Below are positions 23,601 through 56,511 of a DNA stretch of 64,000 nucleotides, piece by piece. Within the stretch, counting starts at the first letter, position 1, and each line of letters starts with the position of its first letter. Origin of the DNA: Minisyncoccota bacterium. GTDB lineage: Bacteria; Patescibacteriota; Minisyncoccia; Phycocordibacterales; CAJQIN01. Under the pieces are notes generated by a model. The model saw only the letters and a list, made by a program, of their open reading frames with translations. It was not told the origin of the DNA and made no database searches. Both the position numbers and the translations under genes were made by a program. Where the stretch lies: contig CAJQIN010000002.1 in the NCBI GenBank assembly GCA_905478465.1, positions 88,312-152,311 of the forward strand, in the 5' to 3' direction.

Positions 23601-23709
23601 TGCTGATATAGGAAATGAATTCTTGGAAGCAACTGCACCCGTGGAACTGGCTGACATTGATACCCAAAGAAAAAAAGGTATTAGTAGTATTTTTGATATT
23701 GATTTTTAA
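20659..23709 (+). CDS. UvrD/PcrA-type superfamily-1 DNA helicase, interrupted in-frame by an intein
   Basis: Walker A AGAGSGKT, motif II VDEYQDTN, and motif III split as VVGDGDQ | intein | CIYSWRGA. C-terminal helicase motifs are present (VHASKGLEFD, YVAVTRAR). The extein is about 648 aa. Confidence 0.85.
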   Translation: MQHLEGLNPAQKEAVTTTEGPVLIVAGAGSGKTRVITHRIAHIVSQGIEPANILAVTFTNKAAKEMRERAMKLLSNDFATGSTPFISTFHALGVFLLRSHYKELDIPKHFTIFDRDDSKKAVKQALKKKGLDPKEYDPGKILNSISKQKGDSITVEEFTANASSYYEELIADIWNEYERILQKNRTFDFDDLLLKSVSFLRKHKDIREKYHGIWKYVHVDEYQDTNQVQYDLIKLLTNTDNNICVVGDGDQCLIKGTKVTLAEGKTINIEKIKKDDLVMSNYGSGDFRPARVTSVLKKKTNSTLVRIHTSKGRTIESTPEHIHFAGYRLGDTPQSYVTYLMYKKSIGWRLGVSQIYTNGGKNTIAGFAQRSNQEHADALWIVGTYTTPNEARVHEYTLSLQYKIPTLPFVARKGGSTNGYVHDQKIINKIFSSFNTDQGAKKLLKSLGLLEKYPHHRPQSHNSNRRNIIITLCGDRRGSTPMHRMSMVGNDVLGKKILTSIGLSVRPAKKGSKSWRVESSYGNYEDVLGIAERINKAFPEASIIQNARLEKNKKDARNKNSLSFMPAGSIVPGMVLFNDKGGYDIVKKVEVTKKSPQTVYDLNIEKTHNYIANGIVTHNCIYSWRGASIRNILTFGEDFSDTKTILLEENYRSTKNILGAANEIIKKNNNRVDKKLFTQNDVGEKIECIEGWSEGNEAEKVAQKIKELLANGTNPNEIVMLYRANFQSRVLEESLLRAGISYQLLGTKFFDRKEVKDTLSFIRAALNPDNLVDIARIINTPVRGIGKVTIAKVINGEEETLTGRARESVQKFRTILQKIHSESTNMLPSELVRFTFKVSGLEESFKSQGEDGIERFENVQELVSLATRYDTYPEEDRIGEFLSDVALASDQDELMKDGGEAVKMMTVHASKGLEFDTVFITGLEEGLFPHEGMGDAKTDDEEERRLFYVAVTRARKKIFLSYANSRTIYGTTTLRAPSQFIADIGNEFLEATAPVELADIDTQRKKGISSIFDIDF
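21412..22515 (+). other. intein (368 aa, class 1: Cys1 ... His-Asn, +1 Cys) inside helicase motif III
   Basis: Block A CLIKGTKV, block B GRTIESTPEHIHF, blocks F/G VYDLNIEKTHNYIANGIVTHN, then CIYSWRGA resumes the extein. No LAGLIDADG or HNH motif is recognisable in the central region. Confidence 0.8.
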
Positions 23710-23758
23710 TTGTTTATACAAAATAGGCTATTTTTTACCACTTTGCTATCATAACCCC

Positions 23759-24514
23759 ATGAACATGTTTGCCAAAAAGTCTCTAGGACAAAACTTCCTC
23801 ATCCAACCACAAATTAGTATCGACATGGTAACTTCTGCACAAATATCCAAAGAGGACACTGTGGTAGAAATTGGACCTGGTACCGGAGTACTAACAAAAG
23901 AACTCCTCCGTACAGCCAAAAAAGTCTATGCCATAGAAAAAGATGACAGACTTATCGACCCTCTCAAAGAAACATTTAAAGAAGAGATATCTTCTGGACT
24001 ACTGGAAATTATTCACGACGATGTACTCAAAACCAAACCACCAACTGAACCTTACAAAATAGTGGCAAACATCCCTTACTATATTACTGGTAAGATTATT
24101 CGACATTTTTTTGACCAAACACATCAACCTAAATCAATGACTCTGCTTGTTCAAAAAGAGGTAGCTGAGCGAGTTATAGCCAGAGAGGGGAAGGAGAGCA
24201 TCCTTTCCATGAGTATAAAAATATACGGAACACCTCACTATATGAAAACAGTAAAAGCGGGGAATTTTAACCCTGTGCCAAAAGTTGATTCTGCGATTCT
24301 ACACATCTCTGACATATCACGTCAGAACTTCGAAAATATTTCTGAGGAACATTTTTTCACCCTACTTCACACAGGATTTCAGAGTAAACGAAAAAAACTT
24401 TCTAAAAATATAAAAGAATTAGTATCTCCAGACACATTTGAAACTTGTAAGATACCACTTGATGCTAGAGCAGAAGACATCTCTCTTGAAAACTGGGTGT
24501 GTTTGTCTAAATAA
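23759..24514 (+). CDS. rsmA: 16S rRNA (adenine1518/1519-N6)-dimethyltransferase
   Basis: KKSLGQNFL start and the SAM motif VVEIGPGTGVLT. The upstream in-frame extension back to 23615 is unlikely because it overlaps the helicase end. Confidence 0.85.
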   Translation: MNMFAKKSLGQNFLIQPQISIDMVTSAQISKEDTVVEIGPGTGVLTKELLRTAKKVYAIEKDDRLIDPLKETFKEEISSGLLEIIHDDVLKTKPPTEPYKIVANIPYYITGKIIRHFFDQTHQPKSMTLLVQKEVAERVIAREGKESILSMSIKIYGTPHYMKTVKAGNFNPVPKVDSAILHISDISRQNFENISEEHFFTLLHTGFQSKRKKLSKNIKELVSPDTFETCKIPLDARAEDISLENWVCLSK

Positions 24515-27377: not shown

Positions 27378-28190
27378 ATGAAAATAAAACAAACTGTACT
27401 CATAGTAACCATTGTCATAATTTCTTTCGTGGGCATATTTTTATACATACGCTCTGTAGAATTTGGAGGAAAAACACAATATACACAAAAAGAAACCATT
27501 CATCAAACCAACTCTCAAACAGCACAAAGAGTTTCTTCAACTGAGGTTATAGACGCTTTTATTGAAACTAATGAGGACCTCAATGTTCTTGATGTTCTTC
27601 ATAGTATAAATAACTCTCTGACCGAAAGATTTCTCACTTATTATGATGAAAAAATCGGCCTTGAAACTCAAGGTGTCGACATACCTACCCGAGAAAAAGT
27701 TCTTCGTGATTTTCTAGTACAAGAAAATTTTGAAAACATACTCAAAAATTACCCCTTATACACAACAACAGACCTGAGAACTGTTGCCGCATCAGAAAAT
27801 ACATTCGCTCAATACAAAAAAGGTTTCGAAACAAGTGTTGCTTTGAATTTAAAAATATCTGAACTTGAAAATGAATTGTCTGTGTTTAGAAAAGCTCAAA
27901 CGATGACAAATAAACAACATAAGGAAATTGAAATACAAAAATTAACAGGCATTCAAAAAAATTATACTGCCCTTAGAGACTCTTTACTTCTTTTGTATGT
28001 CCCATCAGATGCTTTAATTATTCACCTTGATCTAGTTAATTCAATCAATTTTATTATAAATCGTATTGAAGGTATGCAAACATTAATCGCAGATCCTCTT
28101 CGTGCGCAAATATATGCCAGTTCATACGAAAAAGATGCTCACATTTTTATTGATTCTTATACAAAATTAACATCTTATTTATCTAAATAA
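27378..28190 (+). CDS. hypothetical membrane-anchored protein (first gene of the secretion-system-like cluster)
   Basis: N-terminal TM helix. No recognised domain. Confidence 0.4.
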   Translation: MKIKQTVLIVTIVIISFVGIFLYIRSVEFGGKTQYTQKETIHQTNSQTAQRVSSTEVIDAFIETNEDLNVLDVLHSINNSLTERFLTYYDEKIGLETQGVDIPTREKVLRDFLVQENFENILKNYPLYTTTDLRTVAASENTFAQYKKGFETSVALNLKISELENELSVFRKAQTMTNKQHKEIEIQKLTGIQKNYTALRDSLLLLYVPSDALIIHLDLVNSINFIINRIEGMQTLIADPLRAQIYASSYEKDAHIFIDSYTKLTSYLSK

Positions 28191-28263
28191 TACACAACAT
28201 GTTAGTAGGGTATTTATTAAAAACAAGCTACAATAATATGTATAATCATATAATATTCAAACT

Positions 28264-29325
28264 ATGAAATATTCCTATACACAAAATATATCTACCTACT
28301 TTTGTTCCATACTTGTTATATCACTCTTCATAACCCCGTCTTTTTCTTTTGCCCAGCAAAAAGTTCCTGTTATTGATGAAAGTCACATAGAAGTAAGTCA
28401 GCAAATTTTGAATGTCCTCACAACTCTAATGGAAAAAGAGCTACAAAAAGATCCATTAGAAGAGGCTGCAGCAAAACAAGAGCTCGCAGATAGCACTCAA
28501 GAAGAGATTGAATATATCCAAGAAGGGTACAAAGGATATCTTCAAAACGCCTATCTTCCTGGAATAGGGGATATCGACACTTCTTTTTTTGAAACAGACC
28601 TAGAGGAATTCTATAACAGCGTTAGAGAAAGTGAATTTAATCGCTTCATGGAAGAAAACTTTGGGTATGATTTTAACTCTGATGAAACCACTTTTAACCC
28701 TGATCCAAATAATGAACATCCTGGACAAAATCTTAATGTCATAGGAACAGCTTTACGCGCAAAATACGACAACACTTCTGAAGGATACACACTTGATACT
28801 GTCACAGGAGGATCTGAAAATACCCAAGCTTTTCTAGAAGGAGACTTTAGCCAAGGAGGCTGGGATGCGTGGTACTCACTCTCTCAAAACCCTGAAAATA
28901 ATGCCTACGGACAATACTTCCAAGCATCAGAGTCTCTCGACAATCAAATATCAAAAAATATTGTTATTGAGGAGCAGAAACTAGAATGGGGGCAAGGATT
29001 TCATGCCTTAGAAAAAGCTGACGGAACCATTACAACTCCAAGTGTTTTAAACCTAAACCAACTCAACCAAGCAATTTCAACATGTAACAATTCCCTCGAA
29101 GCTATCGATGAATACACAGGTGAATTACTACCTGATAGTCTTGGTAATATGTGTGATGCCATTCGCGAGGGACTAAACAGTACCACAGGACTTCTCGAAA
29201 CAAATTTTGATTTTGCTGAACTGTTTGACTTAGATTTTAGTGGTCTTGTACAGGATTTATTACACGGAGTTGATATGGCAGGCAGTGTTCTTAACCATGT
29301 TGATTTAGGAGGTATCGGCCTTTAA
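28264..29325 (+). CDS. hypothetical secreted protein
   Basis: Signal peptide ending ...SFSFAQQ. Acidic, no recognised domain. Confidence 0.4.
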   Translation: MKYSYTQNISTYFCSILVISLFITPSFSFAQQKVPVIDESHIEVSQQILNVLTTLMEKELQKDPLEEAAAKQELADSTQEEIEYIQEGYKGYLQNAYLPGIGDIDTSFFETDLEEFYNSVRESEFNRFMEENFGYDFNSDETTFNPDPNNEHPGQNLNVIGTALRAKYDNTSEGYTLDTVTGGSENTQAFLEGDFSQGGWDAWYSLSQNPENNAYGQYFQASESLDNQISKNIVIEEQKLEWGQGFHALEKADGTITTPSVLNLNQLNQAISTCNNSLEAIDEYTGELLPDSLGNMCDAIREGLNSTTGLLETNFDFAELFDLDFSGLVQDLLHGVDMAGSVLNHVDLGGIGL

Positions 29326-29334
29326 AAAAATATT

Positions 29335-31527
29335 GTGACCAAAGGAATTAGAAACAGCTTTATACTTAGTATCATATTCTGCATAGGATTTATTTTTGCT
29401 GTACCACAAATGGCACATGCCCAAACAAACCAGTCTTCACCTTGGCAATCAACTACACTTACAAATGAAACTGTAGATATTGCAAATTGTGGTTCTGACT
29501 TTACTTGTCATGGGAAAAAAATAATAGCCTACACCATAATTTTTACAGGGAACACCCTCCTTAGAATATTCTCTTGGATCACATGGATAGGCGGAACTTT
29601 CCTTAATACAGTACTCTTGGTCACGGTGGTAAACATGTCAGGTATTGTAGAAAAGACGTCTGCCATTCAAGATGGATGGAAAATCATTAGGGATCTGTCA
29701 AATATTGCCTTTATCTTTGTACTTCTGTATATATCAATATCAACCATATTAGATTTAGGGGTTAACACAGGAAAAGCTTTACGTAGTGTTGTTATAGCTG
29801 CTTTATTTATAAACTTCTCCTTCTTTTTTGCAGCAACAATTATTGACGTATCCAACATACTAACCTTACATCTCTACGACCAAATTCTTACTCCAAGTAA
29901 TCAGTCTGCAACTGGTACGTCTAGTGACGTTAATAGCGACACAGACCCAAATAGCAGGTCTAGCGTAGGATTATCCGGAAAAATGCTTGAGAAACTAGGT
30001 GTTCCCACACAAGTATTTAGTTTCCCAGATGATGCTGAGTTAAATAATACATGGAATAATCTAGGTACTTTTTTTGTCAAAATACTTGGCGGTATCTTCC
30101 TCCTTATTGTTTCTTCTTTTATTTTTATTGCAGCCGGTATCATGTTCTTGTACCGTTTTGTTATTTTCGTATTTCTTCTTATATTTTCCCCTATTGCCTT
30201 TTTAGGAATGATTTTGCCTCAAACAAAAAGTACAGCCTCTGCTTGGTGGAAATCTCTCACGGACAATGCTCTTTTTGCCCCGGTTTACATGGTACTTACT
30301 TTTATTGCATTAGAAATAGTTGGATCTCTTCATACACAAATATCTGCTGTTGCTAATTCAAGTAATCAAAAAATACTCCTTGATCCAACCGCTTTTTTAA
30401 ACTTTGTTATCGTTGCAGCTTTTCTGCTCGGATCACTAATTATCTCTAAAAAATATGCAACAGCAAGTGCAGGGACAGCAACATCTCTAGCCGGGAAAGC
30501 TGTCTTTGGAAAATACGGACTAGGTGGAGCAAGTAGATTTGCAGGAAGACGAATTGGCGCCGGTATCAAAGAAAACAAGTATATAAATAACCTTGTTGAT
30601 GGTGAACGAAGTAATGTCGCAGGACGCTGGGCAGGACGTTTAGCATTACGCACAGGAGATAAGATTGAAAAAGGAACCTATGATGCACGAAAAACACTTA
30701 ACTCCTTAGGAAGCTCTCTAGGTGAAAAGAATGCATTTGGCAAAAGTGTAAGTAGAAAAGATCTTGATAAAAACCAAAAAGACAAAGAACAAGCAATAAT
30801 TGACGCTATGGCACCAACCCAACACACCATCAGTCAGGCCGAGGCAGACCTTACCGAATCAAGGAAAAAATATATTCAAATAAAAGACACCTTCGACAAA
30901 GACCCTATCACCAAAAAAATTAATACAAAAATTGAAATAGCCGAAAAAGAATTAATGGAGGCAAAGAAAGCTCTAGGAAGTGAAGATGATATGAAAAAAC
31001 TTGCGCAAAAAGAAAGATCATCTGGGAACATCAAAGAAGCAAGAAATATTGAAGAAGTTTTTGCAAAGAAAAAATCTACCTTAGCAACCATGGAAGCAGA
31101 TCTCTCTTCATATAGAAAAGAGAAGTCCGGCCATAAAAAAACTTTAGGGGTAACAGAGGCGGAAGAACAACTGGAGCCGTATCAGAAAAAGATGGATACT
31201 CTAAAAGGTGTCGATGATAAAGAAGCCCTCAAACGTGCTAAAAATAATACTAAACAAGCGGAAGATGAGGATGACAAAGCGTATAAAAAACGTGTTGAGA
31301 AAGAAGCTCGAGGTTTACAACAAAAAAGCCAACAAGAAGCAAGGACCACGCGCCATATTGAAGATGCAGAAAACTCAATGTTCCAACCTAAACGCGAACG
31401 AGAAAATCGAGTTGCACTTCTTAAAAAAATGACTAAAAAGCAAAGCGCAGCAGATCTTCTAGAAGGATTTATTAAAGAAACATCATCAAGTAGTAGCCCA
31501 GCCAAAAATCCTGATGATGAAAATTAA
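29335..31527 (+). CDS. large polytopic membrane protein with charged coiled-coil C-terminal tail (possible VirB6/PrgH-like channel component)
   Basis: Signal peptide, at least 6 predicted TM helices, and a K/E-rich 250-aa C-terminus. The VirB6-like role is assigned from context only. Confidence 0.4.
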   Translation: MTKGIRNSFILSIIFCIGFIFAVPQMAHAQTNQSSPWQSTTLTNETVDIANCGSDFTCHGKKIIAYTIIFTGNTLLRIFSWITWIGGTFLNTVLLVTVVNMSGIVEKTSAIQDGWKIIRDLSNIAFIFVLLYISISTILDLGVNTGKALRSVVIAALFINFSFFFAATIIDVSNILTLHLYDQILTPSNQSATGTSSDVNSDTDPNSRSSVGLSGKMLEKLGVPTQVFSFPDDAELNNTWNNLGTFFVKILGGIFLLIVSSFIFIAAGIMFLYRFVIFVFLLIFSPIAFLGMILPQTKSTASAWWKSLTDNALFAPVYMVLTFIALEIVGSLHTQISAVANSSNQKILLDPTAFLNFVIVAAFLLGSLIISKKYATASAGTATSLAGKAVFGKYGLGGASRFAGRRIGAGIKENKYINNLVDGERSNVAGRWAGRLALRTGDKIEKGTYDARKTLNSLGSSLGEKNAFGKSVSRKDLDKNQKDKEQAIIDAMAPTQHTISQAEADLTESRKKYIQIKDTFDKDPITKKINTKIEIAEKELMEAKKALGSEDDMKKLAQKERSSGNIKEARNIEEVFAKKKSTLATMEADLSSYRKEKSGHKKTLGVTEAEEQLEPYQKKMDTLKGVDDKEALKRAKNNTKQAEDEDDKAYKKRVEKEARGLQQKSQQEARTTRHIEDAENSMFQPKRERENRVALLKKMTKKQSAADLLEGFIKETSSSSSPAKNPDDEN

Positions 31528-32128
31528 CAATATGGAAACACAAAAAGAAATACACAACATAATAGGTACCCAATTAGAACAACTTCCTGAAAATGTTCGT
31601 TTGTACATTGAAAGCAAGGTCTGGGACACAGCCCTAGAAGAACTCCTAATAAAAGATGTAATTACTCACAAATATTCTGAAGAAATAAAGTATGAGATAT
31701 TCTTTTATCTTCTTGGACTTCGAGATAAAAATGAAACAATCAAAAAAATACAAGATATACCAGAAGAAACTGAATCTCTTAATAAAAATATAGATTTTTT
31801 CTCAGTTATTCCAGACACTATCCAAAAAGAACTTGCCGACATATTGAGCCCTGAAGAAACTCCCGTATCCGACGAAAGATTAGGAGGTGTTGAAATAACA
31901 CATGAATCACAAACAAAAAATGAAGAAGATATAGTACCTGAACGAGAAAATGTAATGCAAGGAATTGAACACCCAGAAAACATAACTTCACAATCAGAAA
32001 CAATATCTAATCCTATTGGATCCAAATTAAAAAAAACTACTGAAAGTAGCACCGTACCACTAGGAGATAACCCTAGTAGAAGAGGGTACGCAGAAGGACA
32101 AGACCCTTACAGAGAAGCCTTAAACTAA
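31514..32128 (+). CDS. hypothetical acidic protein
   Basis: 204-aa ORF that overlaps the upstream gene by 14 nt. Confidence 0.4.
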   Translation: MMKINNMETQKEIHNIIGTQLEQLPENVRLYIESKVWDTALEELLIKDVITHKYSEEIKYEIFFYLLGLRDKNETIKKIQDIPEETESLNKNIDFFSVIPDTIQKELADILSPEETPVSDERLGGVEITHESQTKNEEDIVPERENVMQGIEHPENITSQSETISNPIGSKLKKTTESSTVPLGDNPSRRGYAEGQDPYREALN

Positions 32129-32236
32129 TTACCAATACTTAAACCTACTACATACCCATAACAAGCTTTGCTTGTTATGGGTATGTAGTTCATAATTAAG
32201 GTAGTTAATATTTCTCTAAAAAAATAAACACACCCT

Positions 32237-32665
32237 ATGCGCTATCAAGTACCACAATTTATAGAAGTTGAAGACAAAATATTTGGACCCCTAACCTTAA
32301 AGCAATTTATTTATCTAGGTGGATCTATTGGTATTATTGTGGTTATTTTTAGTTTTACACCAAGAATTCTAGCCTTTATTCTATCTACCCCCGTTGTTGC
32401 TCTTGGTCTTGCTTTAGCATTTTATAAAGTAAACAATAAGCCTTTTCTAGAAATGATAGAGGCATTTTTTCACTATAATACAAATGGAAAACTATATATA
32501 TGGCATAAAACTGCTAGAAAAATCAAAAAAGGGTCTGAGCAAACAGACAGAAGAACTTTAGAAGTTCCTAAACTTGCAAATAGTAAGCTTAAAGACCTTA
32601 CATGGACCCTTGATGTAAAGGAACAAAACAATCCCATTACAAAAGAAACTAATCCACCTGTATAA
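32237..32665 (+). CDS. PrgI/VirB3-like small membrane protein
   Basis: VPQFIEVEDKIFGPLTLKQFIYLGG followed by two TM helices. It sits immediately upstream of a VirB4-like ATPase, as in Gram-positive conjugative T4SS. Confidence 0.5.
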   Translation: MRYQVPQFIEVEDKIFGPLTLKQFIYLGGSIGIIVVIFSFTPRILAFILSTPVVALGLALAFYKVNNKPFLEMIEAFFHYNTNGKLYIWHKTARKIKKGSEQTDRRTLEVPKLANSKLKDLTWTLDVKEQNNPITKETNPPV

Positions 32666-32692
32666 AGACGTAACCTGCGTTATACTATCTAT

Positions 32693-33319
32693 ATGTCATC
32701 ACGTAATTCAAAAGCAACCCAAGATTTTATTCCTGTAGAAGAGATAAGAGATGGTGTTGCGATTCTAAAAGATGGTTCTTTGAGGTCAATTATCATGGCT
32801 TCTTCTGTTAACTTTGCCCTCAAGTCAGATGATGAAAGAACTTCTATTCTTTTTCAATTTCAAAACTTTCTTGATTCTCTAGATTTCTCTGTACAAATAG
32901 TCATCCAGTCACGTCGACTTGATATTCGACCATATCTTGCACTCCTTGAGGAACGTCAAAAGGTTCAGATGAACGACTTAATGAAAATGCAAACACGAGA
33001 ATATATTGGTTTCATAAAAAAATTCACAGAAAGTGTCAGCATCATGACAAAAAACTTCTTCGTAGTAGTATCTTATTCTCCCTCTACACTAGGATCTAAA
33101 AAAGGTGGTTTTATGAAAAAGAAATCTTCAAAAACTAAAGACGTAAATTTTTCTTTTGAAGAAAATTTGAGTCAATTAAACCAGAGAATGTCTGTTGTTG
33201 AACAAGGTCTTTCACGAACAGGTGTACGTGTTGCTCACTTAGGAACAGAGGAGGTGACGGAACTTTTTTATAAATTATTTAATCCTGGAGAGACTGAAAA
33301 ACCAATTAAAATGCAATAA
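32693..33319 (+). CDS. VirB4-like ATPase N-terminal domain (separate ORF or frameshifted part of the next gene)
   Basis: 208 aa. It ends 1 nt before the ATG of the ATPase-domain ORF, and the combined length (about 811 aa) equals a full VirB4. Confidence 0.4.
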   Translation: MSSRNSKATQDFIPVEEIRDGVAILKDGSLRSIIMASSVNFALKSDDERTSILFQFQNFLDSLDFSVQIVIQSRRLDIRPYLALLEERQKVQMNDLMKMQTREYIGFIKKFTESVSIMTKNFFVVVSYSPSTLGSKKGGFMKKKSSKTKDVNFSFEENLSQLNQRMSVVEQGLSRTGVRVAHLGTEEVTELFYKLFNPGETEKPIKMQ

Positions 33320-33320
33320 T

Positions 33321-35132
33321 ATGGGAATTTTTGATTTTTTAAAGAAAAATAATGACAAAGACTTTGATATAAGCACAATTATGCCTGACAACATCTACGA
33401 GGCTAATGCACTTGAATTAAAGGATATTCTTGCACCAAGTGCACTCGAGATCACCCCAAGAGAGATACGTCTTGGAGATAAAGTGTTACGAAGTTTTTTT
33501 GTTATTTCATATCCGAGATTTCTTGCAGAAAGCTGGTTTGCACCAATCATCAATCTGGACAAAATGTTTGATATCACTATCCATATTCATCCTATTGAAA
33601 CATCTATTATTCTCAGAAAATTTCAAAAAAAAGTAGCCGAAATACAAAGTCAGATTAATGAAAGGGAAGAGAAGGGACTTGTTCGAGATCCAAAACTAGA
33701 TACTGCCTATCAGGACCTAGAGGACCTCAGAGACAAACTCCAGCAAGCACAAGAGCGTCTTTTTGATGTAGGACTATACATCACCCTTTATGCAGATAAT
33801 ACAGAAGAATTAGACAAAATTGAATCTGAAATTAAATCTATTCTAGAATCAAAACTGGTTTATGTTAAACCGGCTTTATTTCAACAAGAACAAGGTTTCA
33901 AATCAACTTCACCTATTGCAACAGACCTTTTAGGAGTTCATACGAAATTAAATTCCTCTCCTCTATCAAGTATTTTTCCTTTCATCTCATTTGACCTTAC
34001 ATCAGACAAAGGAGTTCTTTATGGTATCAACCGTCACAACTCTAGTCTTGTGCTTTTTGACAGATTCTCTCTTGAAAACTACAACTCAATTACTTTCGCA
34101 AAGTCTGGTTCCGGAAAATCCTATGCAACAAAACTTGAACTCCTGCGTTCTCTTATGTTTGATACAGAAGTCATTATCATAGACCCTGAAAATGAATATG
34201 AATACATGGCAGAAGCGGTAGGGGGTAGATTCTTCAAAATATCACTTAGTTCTCAACACCACATCAACCCCTTTGACCTACCTATTCCCCGAGAAGATGA
34301 ATCCCCAGCAAGTGTTCTGCGCTCAAACATTATTCACCTTGTAGGACTTTTCCGTATTATGCTCGGAGGCCTTACAGCAGAAGAGGATGCTATTGTTGAT
34401 CGAGCCATCACTGAAACATATGCTTTGAAAGATATTTCTCCAGACTCTAATTTCGCAGATATTGATGCCCCTCTTATGTCTGATTTTGAATTAGTACTAT
34501 CTGGTATGGAAGGCGGAGAGTCTCTTGCACAACGTCTCAGCAAGTACACCAAAGGTACTTGGGCAGGCTTTATTAACAAACCATCGAATGTAGATCTAGA
34601 TAAGAAATTTATTGTATTTTCTATTCGAGATATGGAAGACGAACTCAAGCCCGTAGCCATGTACATCATTACCCACTTCATCTGGAATGCTGTTAGAAAA
34701 GACCTCCGAAAACGCCTTCTTGTAATAGATGAGGCTTGGTGGATGATGAAATCTGAAGACACAGCATCTTTCTTGCTCAATGTGGCAAAAAGAGGACGTA
34801 AATACTATTTAGGACTTCTAACCATCACACAAGATGTCGGCGACTTCCTAAACTCTCCTTACGGACTTCCTATTATCACCAACTCTTCAATGCAACTTTT
34901 ATTAAAACAATCTCCAACCGCCATCGATAAACTACAGGAAGTATTCAATCTGACAGACGAGGAAAAATATCTACTTCTTGAATCTCAAATAGGGGAGGGC
35001 ATATTCTTCGCAGGACTTAAACATGTAGCTATAAAAATCATTGCTTCCTACACAGAGGACCAAATTATTACCTCAGATCCATCTCAAATCTTAGCAATTC
35101 AAAAAGCCAAAAGAGAGTTAGAGCAATCATAA
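33321..35132 (+). CDS. VirB4/TrbE/PrgJ-like type IV secretion ATPase (C-terminal ATPase domain)
   Basis: Walker A FAKSGSGKSYATK, IIIDPENEY, Walker B LLVIDEAWWMM, and RKYYLGLLTITQDVGDF. This is the VirB4 (AAA-like/DUF87) signature set. Confidence 0.85.
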   Translation: MGIFDFLKKNNDKDFDISTIMPDNIYEANALELKDILAPSALEITPREIRLGDKVLRSFFVISYPRFLAESWFAPIINLDKMFDITIHIHPIETSIILRKFQKKVAEIQSQINEREEKGLVRDPKLDTAYQDLEDLRDKLQQAQERLFDVGLYITLYADNTEELDKIESEIKSILESKLVYVKPALFQQEQGFKSTSPIATDLLGVHTKLNSSPLSSIFPFISFDLTSDKGVLYGINRHNSSLVLFDRFSLENYNSITFAKSGSGKSYATKLELLRSLMFDTEVIIIDPENEYEYMAEAVGGRFFKISLSSQHHINPFDLPIPREDESPASVLRSNIIHLVGLFRIMLGGLTAEEDAIVDRAITETYALKDISPDSNFADIDAPLMSDFELVLSGMEGGESLAQRLSKYTKGTWAGFINKPSNVDLDKKFIVFSIRDMEDELKPVAMYIITHFIWNAVRKDLRKRLLVIDEAWWMMKSEDTASFLLNVAKRGRKYYLGLLTITQDVGDFLNSPYGLPIITNSSMQLLLKQSPTAIDKLQEVFNLTDEEKYLLLESQIGEGIFFAGLKHVAIKIIASYTEDQIITSDPSQILAIQKAKRELEQS

Positions 35133-35139
35133 AATAATT

Positions 35140-35661
35140 ATGGAATCAATAAAACGACCAAGGTCTTTAACAAAAAAGAACTTACCCACAAAGGTATCTA
35201 ACAAAGAAAATCAACCTAATACACACATAAACAGTCCTAAAAAAGAAGTATCTTATCGAATATCATGGACCACAGCTTTTTTAATGATATCCCTGACCAT
35301 CGTCTTCGACCTAACTGAAATTATCATCGACTGGCTAGGTAATCTAACAGCAGCTTTTGGACTTGGTTTATTATTCTGGGGTCTCAATATTGGTGGTGTT
35401 ATTTTTATGGGTCTAACTTTTTTTGTCTGGTTTAAAATAAAAAATATTCCCATATTCACAAGTCCTAAAAGAATAGCTACGTCAGCGATTACTTTTATAG
35501 GAGAAATGATTCCTGTTATTAACAACCTTCCGGGATGGACAATAGGTATTATTGTAATAATTATAATAAGTAGATCTGAAGATAGGGGTGGTATCATAGG
35601 GAAAGCAACATCTATAACAAAAAACCTCAAAGGAAAAGCTTCTGTGGGGAAAAAAGGTTAA
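35140..35661 (+). CDS. hypothetical polytopic membrane protein
   Basis: 3-4 predicted TM helices. No recognised domain. Confidence 0.4.
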   Translation: MESIKRPRSLTKKNLPTKVSNKENQPNTHINSPKKEVSYRISWTTAFLMISLTIVFDLTEIIIDWLGNLTAAFGLGLLFWGLNIGGVIFMGLTFFVWFKIKNIPIFTSPKRIATSAITFIGEMIPVINNLPGWTIGIIVIIIISRSEDRGGIIGKATSITKNLKGKASVGKKG

Positions 35662-35691
35662 AGAAATAGAAAATTACGCTATACTATATAT

Positions 35692-36399
35692 ATGAAATAT
35701 TTTTTCTATATTTTTGTTTTTAGTTTTATATTTGCATCAAATATTCCGTATATTTATGCTCAAGAAACAAATTCTTCTGTTAATATTGTTTGGTATGCAA
35801 ACGACTCTTATGTCCCAAATTTTTACAAAGGAAAAGCTCTTCGTTCAGAGTACACAAGCACTACATTAACGGCAATACCTCAAATAAACTATCAAGGTAC
35901 TCTTATTCAAAATTCTGAATTAAATTTTACATGGAAAGTAAACGGAAAAACTTTACAAAACTCAGGATTAGGTAAAAACCAAATAACAATCAAGAATTCT
36001 CTAACATCAAACTCTCCTGAGGTCAGCATTGTTGTCACATCTACGCGCACAGGTCTTTCTGCACAATCATCTTTACAACTACCTGAGTATGAATCTAGAG
36101 TACTACTCTATGAAAACGATCCTCTTTTAGGAATTTTATATAATAAAGCCCTTCTTTCAACATTTTCTGTACAAAATAAAGAAGTAACCCTAAAAGCTAT
36201 ACCGTACTACTTCACAAAAGATGCTCTAGGCTATACATGGAAAATAAATGGAAACACTTTTTCATCAACAGCTCTTGAAGACGGTATCACTCTCAGAAAA
36301 GATGATGCGTCTTCAGGAAGTTCTCAATTAAGTATTTTTGTAAAATCTTTGAAAAATATTTTACAAAAAGAAACCTCTAATCTTACTATCACTTTTTAA
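35692..36399 (+). CDS. hypothetical secreted protein
   Basis: Signal peptide. Beta-rich with repeated WK(V/I)NG(K/N)T segments. Confidence 0.4.
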   Translation: MKYFFYIFVFSFIFASNIPYIYAQETNSSVNIVWYANDSYVPNFYKGKALRSEYTSTTLTAIPQINYQGTLIQNSELNFTWKVNGKTLQNSGLGKNQITIKNSLTSNSPEVSIVVTSTRTGLSAQSSLQLPEYESRVLLYENDPLLGILYNKALLSTFSVQNKEVTLKAIPYYFTKDALGYTWKINGNTFSSTALEDGITLRKDDASSGSSQLSIFVKSLKNILQKETSNLTITF

Positions 36400-36401
36400 A
36401 A

Positions 36402-37037
36402 ATGAAAAAAATACTATTTCTTATAACATTATGGAGTCTGCCAATTTTGTCTTTTGCCCAAGGGACTGCTGGTAATGCTCAACAATATGTCCCCCTTGTA
36501 TCAGACCTTCCTGAAATAATTACAAGTAGTTCTTCTTTTGGAGATTATCTTACTGGTTGGTTTCAACTAATCCTTGGCCTTGTCACCGTCCTTGCAGTTA
36601 TATGGATCACATTAGGAGGTATCAAATATATGTCAACAGATGCTTACTCAGGGAAATCAGAAGGGAAAAAAATGGTTCAAAACGCTATTATAGGACTTCT
36701 TTTAGCGGGAGTATCTTGGCTTATTCTATTCACTATTAATCCCGCTATTTTAAATGTGAATCTTAATTTTACACAACAAGAATCTCAAGATTTTTCAGTA
36801 ACAACAAATATACCTACAGACTCAGGCTCTCTGGAAACCTACTATTGTTTTGTTTGGTATAAAGAAACTTTTTATTTCAGAAACCTGACAGACCCTGCCG
36901 AATCTTGTTTTGTAGATAAAAAAGATTGCACAAAAGCTCGTGCAATAAAAAGAGCTGAATCAGTTAACATGGCCACTTCCCATTGTGCCGAAGCAGAAAG
37001 AGACAGCGCAGCATTATATAAAAACTCAATACAATAA
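36402..37037 (+). CDS. VirB2/TrbC-like pilin candidate with Cys-containing C-terminal extension
   Basis: Signal peptide, then two hydrophobic helices separated by a short charged loop (the TrbC/VirB2 topology), plus an 80-aa C-terminal region with 4 Cys. Confidence 0.4.
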   Translation: MKKILFLITLWSLPILSFAQGTAGNAQQYVPLVSDLPEIITSSSSFGDYLTGWFQLILGLVTVLAVIWITLGGIKYMSTDAYSGKSEGKKMVQNAIIGLLLAGVSWLILFTINPAILNVNLNFTQQESQDFSVTTNIPTDSGSLETYYCFVWYKETFYFRNLTDPAESCFVDKKDCTKARAIKRAESVNMATSHCAEAERDSAALYKNSIQ

Positions 37038-38269
37038 TGACAAAAAAAATTACAATTATACTAACTACGTTAATTCTTATTACAAGTATTGCTTTTGGTA
37101 TCCGCTACTATTTCTTTAACACCTCCATACAAACAAACACAGCAACATCTACTTCTTTTACTAATAATATTTTTGGTTTTCTTGGTATAGGATCCGATAA
37201 TCAGAATGTGGCAGACCAACCCATTAACAAAGTGTCTAATACCAACACCCTGACCAACACTGTTATACCCACACTTAGGCATATCACCGAAAATCCTGTT
37301 GCAGGAGCAACGTTTGTTGGGACAAGTACTATTCGTTACGCGAACAGAGGAAATGGACATATTTTTGAGACACCAACAAACTCTCTGGAAACGGTTAAGA
37401 TTTCTAATACTACCATTCCAAAAGTATACGAAGCTTACTGGGTAAACAATGGAGAGAATGTGATCTACCGACGCCTTAAAGAAAATACAAACACTATCGA
37501 AACCAGTTTTCTTGAGTTACGAACTAAAACAGGTAGCACCACAGATTTTCTACGAGATACCATCATCACTTTTTTACCTGACAACATTACCGATCTTGCG
37601 GTATCAGTGAACACCGATAATATTGCTTACATTCTTCCAATAGACTCTTCTGCTCAAATCACCACAAGCAACCCTGATGGCTCATCACCTTCTTCTTTTT
37701 CTATACCTCATCCATCATGGACACTCTCATGGACAGATTCAAACATCCTTACTATTGTTCCTAAAACAGCTTCTAATGTTTTAACATCGATGTATTCTAT
37801 ATCCAAAACCAAAAACCTTATGCAAGAAATCGACGACAACCCTGGTCTAACAATACTAAACACACCTAAACGAACACTGTATTCATTCTCAACAAAAAAC
37901 TCTTTATTTCTGGAAGTAAAAAATTCTGACGACTTGGTTATTTTACTGTACCCATCAACTCTCCCAGAAAAATGCACCCCTACAGATACCACACATGTAA
38001 TATGTGGAGTTCCCACATCAATTCCACAAGCCTCATATCCTGAAAACTGGTACCAAGGTGTAGTTTCATTTATCGATGAAATACGTACATACAATCTTGA
38101 AACAGGAGAATCTGTTATAACATACACACCCCAAGAAGAATTCGACATAATCAATCCTCAAATATCTTCTGACGGAAAATACTTTATGTTCACAAATAAA
38201 AAAGATTTAAGCCTTTGGGTATTAAACCTTGATGAAGTAGGGGAGGAGACAACGGTAAACACTTTCTAA
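37037..38269 (+). CDS. hypothetical membrane-anchored extracytoplasmic protein (possible beta-propeller)
   Basis: N-terminal TM helix and an S/T/N-rich beta-rich body. The C-terminal SDGKYFMFTN...LWVLNL resembles TolB-like propeller blades. Confidence 0.35.
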   Translation: MTKKITIILTTLILITSIAFGIRYYFFNTSIQTNTATSTSFTNNIFGFLGIGSDNQNVADQPINKVSNTNTLTNTVIPTLRHITENPVAGATFVGTSTIRYANRGNGHIFETPTNSLETVKISNTTIPKVYEAYWVNNGENVIYRRLKENTNTIETSFLELRTKTGSTTDFLRDTIITFLPDNITDLAVSVNTDNIAYILPIDSSAQITTSNPDGSSPSSFSIPHPSWTLSWTDSNILTIVPKTASNVLTSMYSISKTKNLMQEIDDNPGLTILNTPKRTLYSFSTKNSLFLEVKNSDDLVILLYPSTLPEKCTPTDTTHVICGVPTSIPQASYPENWYQGVVSFIDEIRTYNLETGESVITYTPQEEFDIINPQISSDGKYFMFTNKKDLSLWVLNLDEVGEETTVNTF

Positions 38270-38300: not shown

Positions 38301-38765
38301 TTATATCGTATTCTCTACATAACTAAGGACCACTCTACGATCCCTACCATCTCCCTCTGAATGAGTTTTGATGTCGTCCTGATCTGTAAACACAGAGTGG
38401 ACGATCATCCTTTCAAAAGCATTCATTGGCTCCATATCAACACTGGCTTTAAACGAACGTACACGTTCTCCTGCAAAGATAGCTTTTTGTTTTATAGATT
38501 CAATCTGTTTTTTATAAAAATCATCAACATCTATCTGAAATCTTGGCACATCTTCATATTTTTGAGCCACCATTCGACTAACAACATGATTGAGTGCACG
38601 AAACACATCTCCGTCACGTCCAATGAGAGTTTGAGCCTCTTTAGAGTGCACAGAGAACACCAACACTGGTTCACTACATTCAATACTTTCTTCTACAATT
38701 TCTTCATATGAAATATCCATCTTATCCAACACATCTTTAATTGTTTGAATGATATTATTTTTCAT
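38301..38765 (-). CDS. jag: Jag/KhpB-like RNA-binding protein (KH and R3H domains)
   Basis: C-terminal R3H motif (ERMIVHSVFT). Positioned downstream of yidC as in the conserved rpmH-rnpA-yidC-jag cluster. Confidence 0.75.
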   Translation of the reverse strand: MKNNIIQTIKDVLDKMDISYEEIVEESIECSEPVLVFSVHSKEAQTLIGRDGDVFRALNHVVSRMVAQKYEDVPRFQIDVDDFYKKQIESIKQKAIFAGERVRSFKASVDMEPMNAFERMIVHSVFTDQDDIKTHSEGDGRDRRVVLSYVENTI

Positions 38766-39489
38766 TTTTCTTTATGTGTCTTCGAATAACCAACTCTTGT
38801 CCTAATGCAAACAAATTACTTGTTGTCCAATATATAGCAATAGCACCTGAGATATTGTAAGCAATGAAAAGGATAACAACAGGGAAGACATATTTCATTT
38901 GAACTTGCATACTTCGTGCCAAATCATCTTTAAACGAAGGAACATGGTCTTTTTTCTTAGCTTCCATAGGAGGCATTGAATATCGCATTTGGAAAAAGTT
39001 CGTCACCGCTGCAGCAATAGCCAAAATCCAAGATTTTCCTGATATATCTATTAAACCTAGAAAGTTTACATCAACTGATGCTGGTATTTTGATAAAAGAA
39101 TAAAGGAGATCAGTATTTACTTGCGGCCAACCTGATTTTAGGAAAACAAAATATAAAGCAAAAATAATCGGTAATTGTATGAATACCAGAATGATACTAA
39201 CAAAAGGACTAATACCGTTCTTTTTATACAAAGCCATAGTTTGCATAGCTTGTTCTTGTGAATTACCTTTATTCTGCTCTTTTATCTTCTCAAGCTCTGG
39301 AGCCACCTGCTTCATACGGAATTGTGTAATCACCGCCTTCTTTGAAAGAGGGAATAGAATAAACTTCACAATACAGGTAAAAATAACAACAGCCACTCCA
39401 GCATCTACAAAAGGCAGAACGTCGATAAGAAAAATCAACCCATTATAGAGAGGTTGATAGAGAGTAGTGTTAAATAAGGAAGAAATCAT
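38755..39489 (-). CDS. yidC: membrane protein insertase YidC/Oxa1 (short form)
   Basis: 244 aa with 5 TM helices and conserved YidC core segments (PLSKK..., IYWTTSNLF). Confidence 0.85.
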   Translation of the reverse strand: MISSLFNTTLYQPLYNGLIFLIDVLPFVDAGVAVVIFTCIVKFILFPLSKKAVITQFRMKQVAPELEKIKEQNKGNSQEQAMQTMALYKKNGISPFVSIILVFIQLPIIFALYFVFLKSGWPQVNTDLLYSFIKIPASVDVNFLGLIDISGKSWILAIAAAVTNFFQMRYSMPPMEAKKKDHVPSFKDDLARSMQVQMKYVFPVVILFIAYNISGAIAIYWTTSNLFALGQELVIRRHIKKNEK

Positions 39490-39515: not shown

Positions 39516-39851
39516 CTACATATCAAGAAAATTATGCTTTTTTAAAACTTGTTGAAGATTTGTTTGAAAATTTTCATCAATTTTTACACTTTTTTTAGGA
39601 TATACAACGTATACACAAGGTATAAGGAGGGGAAGTAGACCTTGAAAACCCTGAAAAACCCTTCTTTTTATATAATTCCTGCCCACAGCGGTGGGTGTAT
39701 GCTTTTTTGACACAATAACGGCTATCTTTGGATCTTTTATGGCCTCAACCTTATACACCTTAATAGTCCCATACAAAAAAGAAACCTGCACAGATCGCAT
39801 GGTTAAAGAGGTAAATAACGCCGAGGAGACCTTATTTATACGAGGAATCAT
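39516..39851 (-). CDS. rnpA: ribonuclease P protein component
   Basis: 111 aa, basic, with the AVGRNYIKRR motif (the RNR motif region). Immediately downstream of rpmH. Confidence 0.8.
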   Translation of the reverse strand: MIPRINKVSSALFTSLTMRSVQVSFLYGTIKVYKVEAIKDPKIAVIVSKKHTPTAVGRNYIKRRVFQGFQGLLPLLIPCVYVVYPKKSVKIDENFQTNLQQVLKKHNFLDM

Positions 39852-41704: not shown

Positions 41705-42802
41705 ATGAAAGTAGAGTGTGTAAAAGAAAAAATACAAGAAGCTGTTTCGAAAGCAGAAAAGGTAACGGGGAAACATCTAACCCTGCCAATTCTTTCGTAC
41801 ATCATTTTTGAAGCAACAAAAGAAAGTTTGATTATCAAAGCAACAAACCTTGATGTTGGAGTTGAGATCAATGTTCCATGTAAAGTTTTCGAAGAGGGTG
41901 TTGTGGCTGTACCCGGATCAGTATTTAGTTCTCTTCTTTCAAATCTAACAAATCAGAAGGTTGTTCTGGAAACACAAGAACAAACACTTTTAGTTTCAAC
42001 CGAAACAAGCTCCACAACAATCAAAACGGTACCTCATGACGACTTTCCTAGTATACCGAAGTCATCAAGTCAGGAATCTTTTTCCGTGCACTCAGAGTCA
42101 TTTATCGAGGGAATCAAATCTGTTTGGTATGCAGCAGCTGTTTCAAGTATGAAACCAGAATTATCTAGTGTTTTTGTAACTCACAATGAAGATAATATTA
42201 TTTTTGTAGGAACAGATTCATTCCGTTTGGCAGAAAGACATATTCGAGTAAAAAAAATAAAAGATTTTCCTAACATTCTCATCCCGGTAAAAAATATTCC
42301 AGACATTATTAAAATACTCGAAGGTATTTCTGAAGATGTTGAATTGTATATAGCAGAAGATCAGATGTTGATTAAAACACAAGATATAGAGCTAGTATCC
42401 CGTCTTGTTGACGGATCTTTTCCTGATTACAAACAAATTATCCCTGCAGAAAAAACCACATCAGTGACTGTTTTGAAGAAGGATTTATTGCATGGTCTAA
42501 AAACTGCAAATATTTTCTCAAACAAATTCAATCAAATACACTTGATGGTTAATCCTGAAGCAAAAATATTTTCTTGTGATACGCAAAATACTGATGTGGG
42601 AGAAAACACTACACACATAGACGCTGTATTGAAAGGGGATACTGTAGAATTGAATTTTAATTATAAATATATTGTTGATTGTTTTCAGTCAGTAGATGGG
42701 GATTCTGTAGCATTAGATTTTAATGGGTCTAATAAGCCGGTGGTGATTCGTGATATTTCAAACCCATTGTTCTTGTATTTGGTTATGCCTATGTCTCGTT
42801 AA
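41705..42802 (+). CDS. dnaN: DNA polymerase III beta sliding clamp
   Basis: 365 aa with the three-domain clamp layout, directly downstream of dnaA and oriC. Confidence 0.9.
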   Translation: MKVECVKEKIQEAVSKAEKVTGKHLTLPILSYIIFEATKESLIIKATNLDVGVEINVPCKVFEEGVVAVPGSVFSSLLSNLTNQKVVLETQEQTLLVSTETSSTTIKTVPHDDFPSIPKSSSQESFSVHSESFIEGIKSVWYAAAVSSMKPELSSVFVTHNEDNIIFVGTDSFRLAERHIRVKKIKDFPNILIPVKNIPDIIKILEGISEDVELYIAEDQMLIKTQDIELVSRLVDGSFPDYKQIIPAEKTTSVTVLKKDLLHGLKTANIFSNKFNQIHLMVNPEAKIFSCDTQNTDVGENTTHIDAVLKGDTVELNFNYKYIVDCFQSVDGDSVALDFNGSNKPVVIRDISNPLFLYLVMPMSR

Positions 42803-54837: not shown

Positions 54838-56511
54838 TTATTCATCCAAATCAAGAACTCTTCGTATTTCTTCTAGTGTAGTAACACCATTTAAAACTTT
54901 TATTATTCCATCTTGTTGCATAGTGAGGATTCCTTGACCCTCGGCGGCTTTCCAAATATCTCTTTCTCCAGGATTGTCTTGTAGTGCTGTTTCTATTTTT
55001 TCATCAGTTAATATTCCTTCGAAGACACCAATTCTGCCTTTATACCCATTAGATATTTCTCCTTCTGGTATTTCTGGTACCCACATTTTATCCGTCTGTA
55101 CTCCTTCTAAATATGTTTTGTCTACAATGCTGTCAAGAATTCTCAGGATAGTTTCTCGGTCTTTCCCTTCAAGGGGTATTTCTTTTTTAAACTGAGGATC
55201 AATCTTCCTAACAAGACGTTGAGCCAAAGCTAGGTTGATTGCTGAGGTGATGACTTTTGCATTTACACCAAGATCGATAAGGCGTGGAAATGTTCCTGCT
55301 GCATTGTTGGTGTGAAGGGTAGAGAATACAAGGTGACCGGTAAGAGCAGCGTTCACTGCAATCTCTGCTGTCTCTGTGTCTCGAATTTCACCGACCATGA
55401 TCACATCAGGGTCTTGTCTAAGTGCTGCTCGAAGACCAGACAGGAAAGTGTATCCTTGTTTTGTATTTGTTTGTGTCTGAACAATTCCATCGAGATGGTA
55501 TTCAATTGGGTTTTCAATGGTAAGAATTTTTGTTTCTGTTGAATAGATTTTTTTCAATATGGAATAAAGTGTAGTTGTCTTTCCTGAACCTGTCGGACCT
55601 GTGGTTAAGACCATTCCATTAGGTTTCTTTATTTCATGTTCAATGATTTTGAACAGTCTTTCATTAATACCCATGTCTTCCAATGGAACATTGATGGATT
55701 TTGGATTAAGAACACGAAGCACTACGGATTCATTGTATGCTCCAGGAAGTACTGATGTACGAATTTCGATATCTGTATCAGAAAGACGAATAGTGAATCT
55801 TCCATCTTGAGCTGCTTTCTTCAGGTTAAGCTTCAGGCCTGAAAGAAGTTTGATACGAGATAATAGAAGTTGGTATGTATCATTGTCGAGTTGGGCAATA
55901 TCAACAAGTACACCATCTAAACGGTACCTCAAGCGCACATCATCTTTTTCTGGTTCAGTATGAAGGTCAGATGCTTTTGTTGAGAGTGCTCCAGCAACAA
56001 TAATTTCCAAAATTCTAGAAACACGATATCGACGTTCCATATGCAACGTTTCCTCGATCATATTTTTTATATCCAAAAGAGAATGTTCTTCTTTTAGGAA
56101 AATTTGAATTTGGTCACTAGAAATATCGAGTCCTCCCGCTGTCTCAAAAGAAAGAGACAGGTCTTTGTAGCGACTCCAGGCTTTATGAAGGCTTGCTGTA
56201 GATACCATGAACAAGATTGGTTCAAATCCTTTCTCTTTTATTTTTTCAATAGCCTGAATCGTCTTTTGACTATGTGGAGCAAGAACACCAATTTGAATTT
56301 TTTTATCGATCCGATTAAAAGGAGCAACATTTGCTGCTTTTGCATCTTCTTCTGTGATGGCTCGTAGTGCATCTTGATTTATTGGAACAGGGCCGAGGTC
56401 TAGATAGGGAATACCGTATTTAGAAGATAGAATTTGAACAGAGTCTTCCTCTTCTTTTTTTCGAAGTTCATCAAGATCTCTATTTTGTTTTTCTTCATTA
56501 AATTCAATCAT
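54838..56511 (-). CDS. pilB: type IV pilus assembly ATPase PilB (GspE family)
   Basis: Walker A GPTGSGKTTTLYS and the Asp/His boxes. The 557-aa length fits PilB/GspE. Confidence 0.9.
   Translation of the reverse strand: MIEFNEEKQNRDLDELRKKEEEDSVQILSSKYGIPYLDLGPVPINQDALRAITEEDAKAANVAPFNRIDKKIQIGVLAPHSQKTIQAIEKIKEKGFEPILFMVSTASLHKAWSRYKDLSLSFETAGGLDISSDQIQIFLKEEHSLLDIKNMIEETLHMERRYRVSRILEIIVAGALSTKASDLHTEPEKDDVRLRYRLDGVLVDIAQLDNDTYQLLLSRIKLLSGLKLNLKKAAQDGRFTIRLSDTDIEIRTSVLPGAYNESVVLRVLNPKSINVPLEDMGINERLFKIIEHEIKKPNGMVLTTGPTGSGKTTTLYSILKKIYSTETKILTIENPIEYHLDGIVQTQTNTKQGYTFLSGLRAALRQDPDVIMVGEIRDTETAEIAVNAALTGHLVFSTLHTNNAAGTFPRLIDLGVNAKVITSAINLALAQRLVRKIDPQFKKEIPLEGKDRETILRILDSIVDKTYLEGVQTDKMWVPEIPEGEISNGYKGRIGVFEGILTDEKIETALQDNPGERDIWKAAEGQGILTMQQDGIIKVLNGVTTLEEIRRVLDLDE

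Follow-up and report, generated by a model that had tools for sequence, protein, structure and literature searches.

A VirB4 ATPase divided between two adjacent genes in a Patescibacteria type IV secretion locus

When a protein of familiar size is encoded by two abutting open reading frames (ORFs) in different frames, is the gene broken or does the protein come in two parts? The question arises from a 64,000-nucleotide stretch of DNA (the window) from a Minisyncoccota bacterium (assembly GCA_905478465.1, contig CAJQIN010000002.1, positions 88,312 to 152,311). Within its type IV secretion system (T4SS) genes, a 208-amino-acid ORF (ORF1) is followed almost immediately by a 603-amino-acid ORF with the ATPase domain of VirB4 (ORF2). 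The original prediction, made from the sequence, left three alternatives: a genuinely split VirB4, a sequencing or assembly frameshift, or a recent pseudogenising mutation. We find that the split is real, and we think it very probable that ORF1 and ORF2 are separate, co-expressed subunits that make up one VirB4 ATPase of this bacterium's chromosomal T4SS.

The junction and its conservation

Both the ORF table and the underlying letters agree exactly with the prediction that the two ORFs are 1 nt apart and in different frames, and their lengths sum to the 811 amino acids that had been estimated. ORF2 does not, as had been stated, begin at the very next nucleotide after the stop codon of ORF1: the claim was off by one base, as a T at 33320 intervenes. 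The frame of ORF2, which is +1 relative to ORF1, runs without a stop for 21 codons before its ATG, back to 33258. It goes no further because of a TGA at 33255–33257. Therefore, any frameshift that joined the two ORFs would have to fall within the final 20 codons of ORF1. This stretch contains a run of six T (33264–33269) and a run of five A (33297–33301).

A sequencing or assembly indel, for instance in one of these homopolymer runs, could have broken a single virB4 gene of about 811 codons. Both runs lie within the 21 open codons, and the lengths of the two ORFs add up to a full VirB4; both would fit this explanation. However, the 103-nt junction sequence (33258–33360) is identical in six contigs that were assembled independently from different samples (ENA and Logan assemblies). 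Therefore, the stop codon and the change of frame are real sequence and not an error in the window. (Two of the six contigs differ elsewhere in ORF1 or ORF2; the differences are one substitution and one indel close to the 3′ end of ORF2.) Identical copies of the ORF1 protein are recorded on 23 contigs.

The relatives tell the same story. We scanned one genome per species (over 358 relatives) and took the best 80 loci, of which 78 reach far enough downstream. All 78 of these species-level relatives have a separate ORF1-like gene (205–223 amino acids) followed by a separate ORF2-like gene (mostly about 600–640 amino acids). The spacer between the two genes ranges from −4 nt (the genes overlapping by 4 nt, ATGA) to +491 nt and is 0–20 nt in 55 loci. 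The second gene is in frame 0, +1, or +2 relative to the first in 16, 32, and 30 loci, respectively. The ends of the proteins at the break are themselves kept among the relatives: the C-terminus of ORF1 as ...NPG(E/D)TEKPI(K/Q)xx and the N-terminus of ORF2 as M(G/S)(I/L)F(D/S)xL. Separate genes with varying spacers and frames are incompatible with a sequencing indel, with a recent pseudogenising mutation, and with a conserved programmed frameshift. We consider the chance that an indel error explains this locus to be negligible.

A recent frameshift or nonsense mutation that inactivated virB4 in this lineage is just as improbable. The bare ORF structure would fit it, and nothing more does. Both halves are intact and highly conserved, with 59–77% identity to the relatives for ORF1 and 61–87% for ORF2; 64 residues are invariant across 35 homologues of ORF1; and the Walker A and Walker B motifs of ORF2 are intact. 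Also, the split is common across the class and beyond. The split of VirB4 is real, ancient, and under purifying selection.

We also considered that the split might be bridged during translation, with programmed +1 frameshifting or bypass of the stop codon yielding a fused, full-length VirB4. The 1-nt gap, the +1 frame of ORF2, and the 21 codons of open overlap would suit such a mechanism. However, a conserved signal would be expected, yet the frame relation differs among the relatives; spacers of up to 491 nt contain in-frame stops; and in every case ORF2 starts with an ATG of its own, at the conserved M(G/S)(I/L)F N-terminus. Furthermore, the traD and traE genes of pGO1-type plasmids are separate too. 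Because the frame relation is not conserved, we dropped frameshifting; recoding at this junction was rejected and seems very improbable.

Among the three alternatives of the original prediction, then, the first is supported, by the six identical junctions and by the separate genes in 78 of 78 relatives; the other two are refuted by the same observations, with the variable spacers and frames. The indel that was to be sought near the junction in homologous loci is not there, as the junction does not vary among the six contigs and the relatives keep the genes apart. As for the slippery sequence that was to be sought, the T6 and A5 runs are present, but the relation of the frames is not kept.

Searches with ORF1 give the same picture of a stand-alone protein. 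Its 120 closest database homologues (65–100% identity) are all 206–254 amino acids long. An exhaustive HMMER search of 1.84 billion representatives of 50%-identity clusters gave 2,276 relatives with E ≤ 0.001. The best 150 of these representatives are 35–71% identical to ORF1 and 102–443 amino acids long, and none of these 150 is fused to an ATPase. The original prediction had counted stand-alone homologues, together with a lack of similarity to VirB4 N-termini, against a split gene. Stand-alone homologues do exist, in the thousands, but the lack of similarity did not hold (see below), and the test was mis-specified: because ORF1 resembles VirB4 N-termini as well, its stand-alone homologues favor a natural split.

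Complementary parts of VirB4

From its profile matches and motifs, ORF2 is a VirB4-type ATPase. It scores 366.4 bits against the CD1110-family VirB4 model NF045971 (cut-off 325; profile positions 166–733 of 752), aligns to positions 270–893 of 894 of VirB4_plasma, and matches PF19044 (E = 4e-25). Residues 114–195 match the C-terminal parts of PF03135 and of TraC_F_IV (Pfam). By itself, ORF2 is not a single chain of about 750–900 amino acids with both an N-terminal domain and an ATPase domain. (Two of the related loci, L018 (5632–9426) and L030, have ORF2 homologues of 1264 amino acids, about twice the usual length. These come from one Zambryskiibacteriota genome and one Parcubacteria-group genome, and they contain, close to the Walker A region, an intein that carries a LAGLIDADG homing endonuclease (PF14890 at 303–927; PF14528 at 578–659).)

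ORF1, in turn, matches the N-terminal parts of VirB4 models: VirB4_plasma (NCBIfam; profile positions 99–283 of 894, E = 2e-11), TIGR00929 VirB4_CagE (5–182 of 792), the CD1110-family VirB4 model (1–126 of 752), and PRK13853 (7–178 of 789). It also matches nearly all of the TrsD/TraD family NF041427 (13–200 of 201, E = 9.5e-7). By its score, ORF1 is a remote relative of NF041427 that lies outside this narrow subfamily. It has the traits of the TrsD type: a stand-alone protein of about 200–230 amino acids, encoded directly upstream of a shortened VirB4 and remotely homologous to the VirB4 N-terminus. A precomputed match to PF26593 ("TraC-like") is on record for ORF1 and for all 120 of its closest homologues. 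A local Pfam-A scan did not return PF26593 for ORF1 or for P0020, probably because the model is absent from that copy; the scan's matches for ORF1, to TraC_F_IV and Vezatin, were both below threshold.

The predicted structure of ORF1 points the same way. We compared an AlphaFold2 model, which was built from an alignment of 35 homologues and has a mean pLDDT of 71.3, to the PDB with Foldseek. The top 14 matches are all chains of TrwK/VirB4 from cryo-EM structures of the R388 T4SS, with probabilities of 0.87–1.00; the matches from rank 15 down are noise. A profile of the 35 homologues matched no PDB chain by sequence at E ≤ 10, so it was the fold comparison alone that tied ORF1 to VirB4 chains in the PDB. 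Given the NCBIfam profiles and the Foldseek matches, we identify ORF1 as a TrsD-like protein that is homologous to about the first 190 residues of full-length VirB4. The similarity of the 208-amino-acid product to VirB4 N-termini, which the original prediction had asked about, is thereby supported.

ORF1 and ORF2 cover different parts of the same profiles: 1–126 and 166–733 in the CD1110 model, 99–283 and 270–893 in VirB4_plasma, and 19–175 and 289–351 in TraC_F_IV (Pfam). Similarly, in a BLASTP alignment (E = 8e-48), residues 1–566 of ORF2 align to residues 191–770 of an 804-amino-acid, fused VirB4 from Bacillus thuringiensis plasmid pBMB0230 (WP_023523656). By hhalign, residues 7–69 of ORF1 align weakly to residues 27–90 of the same protein. 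Judged by these coordinates, ORF1 and ORF2 are complementary parts of one VirB4 and not a duplicated domain. Because the first residue of ORF2 corresponds to residue 191 of the fused protein, the break lies inside the N-terminal domain and not at its border with the ATPase domain. (In TrwK, the N-terminal domain is residues 15–400; PMC9259494.) ORF2 retains about 250 residues of the N-terminal domain before Walker A. So the suggestion that the two ORFs together amount to a full VirB4 with its N-terminal domain stands as far as the total length is concerned, but ORF1 is only about the first half of that domain, and ORF2 carries the remainder in its residues 1 to about 250.

Could ORF2 be a complete VirB4, with ORF1 either a paralogue of the VirB4 N-terminus in an accessory role or a stand-alone protein that is unrelated to it? 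The literature assigns TrsD no function and calls it only "remotely homologous to the N-terminal portion of VirB4", and TrsD homologues in Gracilibacteria are reported away from virB4 (PMC12102498); both would fit an accessory protein. However, ORF2 lacks the region that ORF1 covers, as seen in the complementary profile coordinates and in the pairing of its first residue with residue 191 of the fused VirB4. ORF2 is also about 200 amino acids shorter than the fused relatives (whose models span 752–894 amino acids), and the summed length fits these. We consider an accessory role for ORF1 to be improbable.

A proposed two-subunit ATPase

We propose that ORF1 supplies about the first 190 residues of VirB4, and that the remainder of the N-terminal domain comes from ORF2, along with the ATPase domain and its Walker A and B motifs. 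ORF1 would dock non-covalently on the N-terminal part of ORF2, as expected from homology, and would provide the membrane-proximal surface that binds VirB3/PrgI. Together with the PrgI/VirB3-like protein that is encoded just upstream, the two proteins would re-form a working VirB4 protomer at the membrane. In R388, VirB3 wraps the N-terminal domain of VirB4 (PMC9259494), and this domain mediates the contacts between VirB4 subunits in the R388 structure. Contact between PrgI and TrsD is also supported by a PrgI-TrsD fusion protein in Streptomyces (described below).

The two genes may be transcribed together from a −10-like box that abuts the start codon of ORF1 (Table 1). An 18-nt motif, CGYTATACTATNTATATG, is found at just two places in the window, 32678 and 35677, versus 0.03 expected. 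Both occurrences, CGYTATACTATNTAT-ATG at 32678–32695 and at 35677–35694, abut a start codon: that of the TrsD-like gene and that of a 235-amino-acid ORF at 35692. The motif at these two starts looks like a conserved promoter of leaderless mRNAs. Among the 78 related loci, 40 have a hexamer with at least 5 of 6 identities to TATAAT that ends 5–9 nt before the start of the ORF1 homologue, as compared to 4% at random ATGs; in 30 loci, a TATAAT-like hexamer ends exactly 6 nt before the ATG. The conserved box suggests that the trsD-virB4 transcript is leaderless or nearly so, with the role of the box as a promoter being read from its position and conservation. A scan of 31400–36500 for consensus promoters and terminators found none between ORF1 and ORF2. 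Expression of the two ORFs is probably coupled. No Shine-Dalgarno-like sequence was found before ORF2 or before the other T4SS genes of the window, which together with the TAA-T-ATG spacing favors termination-reinitiation; ORF2 would be translated by this route.

Several observations weigh against our interpretation. The 28.8 bits of ORF1 on NF041427 are far below that model's cut-off of 200. Confidence in the AlphaFold2 model of ORF1 is moderate (pLDDT of 71), and its TM-scores to TrwK are just 0.38–0.49. Comparisons of the ORF1 profile by hhalign to single proteins were weak, both for TraD from Staphylococcus aureus (E = 0.022, probability 2%) and for the fused VirB4 from B. thuringiensis (E = 0.011, probability 4%). 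As hhalign against single sequences is too weak to be used alone, the usable evidence for the homology of ORF1 comes from hidden Markov models of curated families. The sigma-70 consensus scan for promoters and terminators was at chance (21 hits versus 16.5 ± 4.0 expected), so the positional enrichment of the −10 box is the one support for a leaderless promoter. And a physical complex of ORF1 with ORF2 and PrgI is something that we infer from homology.

We speculate, and think it rather unlikely, that the first 190 or so residues of VirB4 are an autonomous and evolutionarily mobile adaptor module whose separation has functional consequences. If so, the module that binds VirB3 could be loaded onto only a subset of the VirB4 subunits. 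Alternatively, the abundance of the small subunit could regulate the assembly of the T4SS, on which the epibiotic lifestyle depends. (No T4SS but that of Patescibacteria has been shown to be indispensable to its bearer; Wang et al. 2023, PMC10633639.) The conserved −10 box abutting the ATG of the trsD-like gene would mark a dedicated, leaderless transcription unit for a two-piece motor.

Where genomes of Patescibacteria or some elements of Bacillota and Actinomycetota show a TrsD-like gene ahead of a VirB4 of about 600 amino acids, annotators should not flag a frameshifted or pseudogenised virB4, nor merge the two genes as a "repair." A motor ATPase of two polypeptides with a fixed break inside the N-terminal domain should also help with structural modelling and with the design of constructs.

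The T4SS cluster and related systems

The locus is a chromosomal, dnaA-proximal T4SS cluster of a Paceibacteria-type Patescibacterium. The closest relatives are metagenome-assembled genomes of Patescibacteria (Paceibacterota, Zambryskibacteria, Taylorbacteria, and others), and the G+C content of the window is 36.7%. The cluster lies between KsgA and YidC/Jag/RnpA/DnaA/DnaN (Table 1). It has the VirB4 genes beside VirB3-like and VirB6-like genes, and a pilin is present; the position of the VirB6-like gene is kept in the identical contigs. Behind its membrane domain, the VirB6/TrbL-like protein has a charged, lysine/glutamate-rich C-terminal tail of about 300 residues, which is probably a coiled coil.

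Six ORFs in or around the cluster (of 270, 353, 204, 173, 235, and 410 amino acids) have no significant Pfam match. Those of 204, 173, 235, and 410 amino acids are either membrane proteins or hydrophobic over an N-terminal segment. These ORFs could encode the missing VirB8-like or VirB1-like components or components that are specific to the lineage. Pfam scans, which covered part of the ORFs in the 64 kb, turned up neither a relaxase nor a coupling protein; several of the cluster ORFs match no family.

Table 1. Positions of the two VirB4 genes, their signals and motifs, and neighboring genes in the window
Feature	Position	Strand	Description
ORF1	32693–33319	+	ATG at 32693, TAA at 33317–33319; 208 amino acids; TrsD-like, about the first 190 residues of full-length VirB4 (by profile and fold matches)
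Junction TAA-T-ATG	33317–33323	+	ORF1 stop, spacer T at 33320, ORF2 start in the +1 frame
ORF2	33321–35132	+	603 amino acids; N-terminally shortened VirB4 ATPase (second half of N-terminal domain and P-loop ATPase domain)
Walker A, GSGKS	34107–34121	+	ORF2 residues 263–267
Walker B region, LLVIDEAW	34716–34739	+	ORF2 residues 466–473
−10-like box, TATACT	32678–32692	+	Ends 6 nt 5′ of ORF1 ATG; candidate promoter, from motif repeat and positional enrichment
VirB6/TrbL-like polytopic membrane protein	29335–31527	+	730 amino acids; PF04610, E = 1.1e-4, 22.5 bits (under the cut-off of 25.9)
PrgI-family (VirB3-like) membrane protein	32237–32665	+	142 amino acids; adjoins ORF1 on its 5′ side; PF12666, E = 2.2e-9, 38.2 bits (cut-off 27)
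T4SS pilin (VirB2-like)	36402–37037	+	211 amino acids; PF18895, E = 1.2e-6, 28.9 bits (cut-off 26.6)
ORFs without Pfam match	27378–29325, 31514–32128, 35140–36399, 37037–38269		
KsgA	23615–24514		
Jag	38301–38765	−	
YidC	38755–39489	−	
RnpA	39516–39851	−	
DnaA	40143–41501		
DnaN	41705–42802		

Elsewhere in the window, a UvrD/PcrA-type helicase of 1016 amino acids is interrupted by an intein (20659–23709, + strand). A PilB/GspE-type secretion ATPase is encoded 20 kb from the T4SS (54838–56511, − strand; PF00437, E = 9e-107, with an MshEN domain), in keeping with the type IV pilus machinery that is typical of Patescibacteria.

The break in VirB4 has a parallel in the staphylococcal plasmids of the pGO1/pSK41 type. 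In S. aureus (CP030639.1), a TraD of 227 amino acids (NF041427, 227.6 bits) is encoded 20 nt upstream of the VirB4-like TraE, which has 670 amino acids. In both systems, a protein of about 210–230 amino acids precedes a VirB4-like ATPase of 600–670 amino acids (with 1 nt between the genes here). Furthermore, the break point is the same: TraE begins at position 267 of VirB4_plasma (and extends to 893) while ORF2 begins at 270, and in a BLASTP alignment (E = 1e-33), residue 49 of ORF2 pairs with residue 48 of TraE. The staphylococcal system, however, is plasmid-borne and conjugative and has a relaxase, while the system in the window is chromosomal and encodes a pilin, with no relaxase nearby among the ORFs scanned.

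As compared to the full-length, monoderm VirB4 of B. thuringiensis pBMB0230 (CD1110 family), ORF1 and ORF2 are colinear with the single chain. The diderm TrwK/VirB4 of R388, whose chains are the only ones in the PDB that the predicted fold of ORF1 matches, is also a single polypeptide, unlike the two here.

In Actinomycetota, Miltoncostaea oceani (locus L091) has PrgI, then a 337-amino-acid TrsD-like protein (hhalign 99.1%), and then a 661-amino-acid DUF87 ATPase. Unlike ORF1, this TrsD-like protein has a C-terminal extension of about 115 amino acids. In Streptomyces sp. BHT-5-2 (NZ_CP081497.1; locus L084, 2491–3450), a 319-amino-acid ORF has a PrgI domain (18–106) fused to a TrsD-like module (144–307; hhalign 94.7%). 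The end of this ORF overlaps, by 4 nt, the gene for a short VirB4 of 621 amino acids, which is the best match to ORF2 in the plasmid database (36% identity, E = 3e-96). (NZ_CP081497.1 is an unannotated record that is labelled as a 2.8-Mb "plasmid.") By these matches, the TrsD-like module exists in three states: on its own (Patescibacteria and pGO1-type plasmids), joined to VirB3/PrgI (Streptomyces), or joined to VirB4 (CD1110-type and diderm proteins). We also noticed an Aneurinibacillus sp. plasmid (NZ_CP116888.1; locus L082, 3532–5863) that has PrgI, a 333-amino-acid TrsD-like ORF, and a 321-amino-acid hypothetical ORF. It has no annotated VirB4 ATPase and may be a degenerate or otherwise organised locus.

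The closest known systems are the chromosomal, MPF_FATA-related T4SS of other Patescibacteria. Quiñonero-Coronel et al. (2025, Microb Genom, PMC12102498) reported 2,272 TrsD homologues, of which 1,664 lie beside virB4 (in about 1,660 Patescibacteria genomes). They describe TrsD as the commonest T4SS component in Patescibacteria, note that it is essential in Ca. Southlakia epibionticum, and report that the T4SS is often near dnaA, dnaN, rnpA, or ksgA. In Ca. S. epibionticum, the T4SS itself is essential and lacks recognisable coupling or relaxase proteins (Wang et al., Cell 2023, PMC10633639). The cluster in the window has the same components as these systems (VirB6, PrgI/VirB3, TrsD-like, VirB4, and VirB2-like pilin), with the trsD-like gene directly upstream of virB4, and it is likewise chromosomal and by dnaA, dnaN, rnpA, and ksgA. 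As both the association of TrsD with VirB4 in these bacteria and the distant relationship of TrsD to VirB4 N-termini have already been published (PMC12102498), the locus opens no new question. What we add is minor: the explicit complementarity of the two proteins, the break point in common with TraD/TraE of pGO1, the fusion of PrgI with a TrsD-like module, and the −10 box by the start of trsD. We see no substantive difference from the published systems, and the TrsD-virB4 pair in the window is an ordinary member of a known arrangement.

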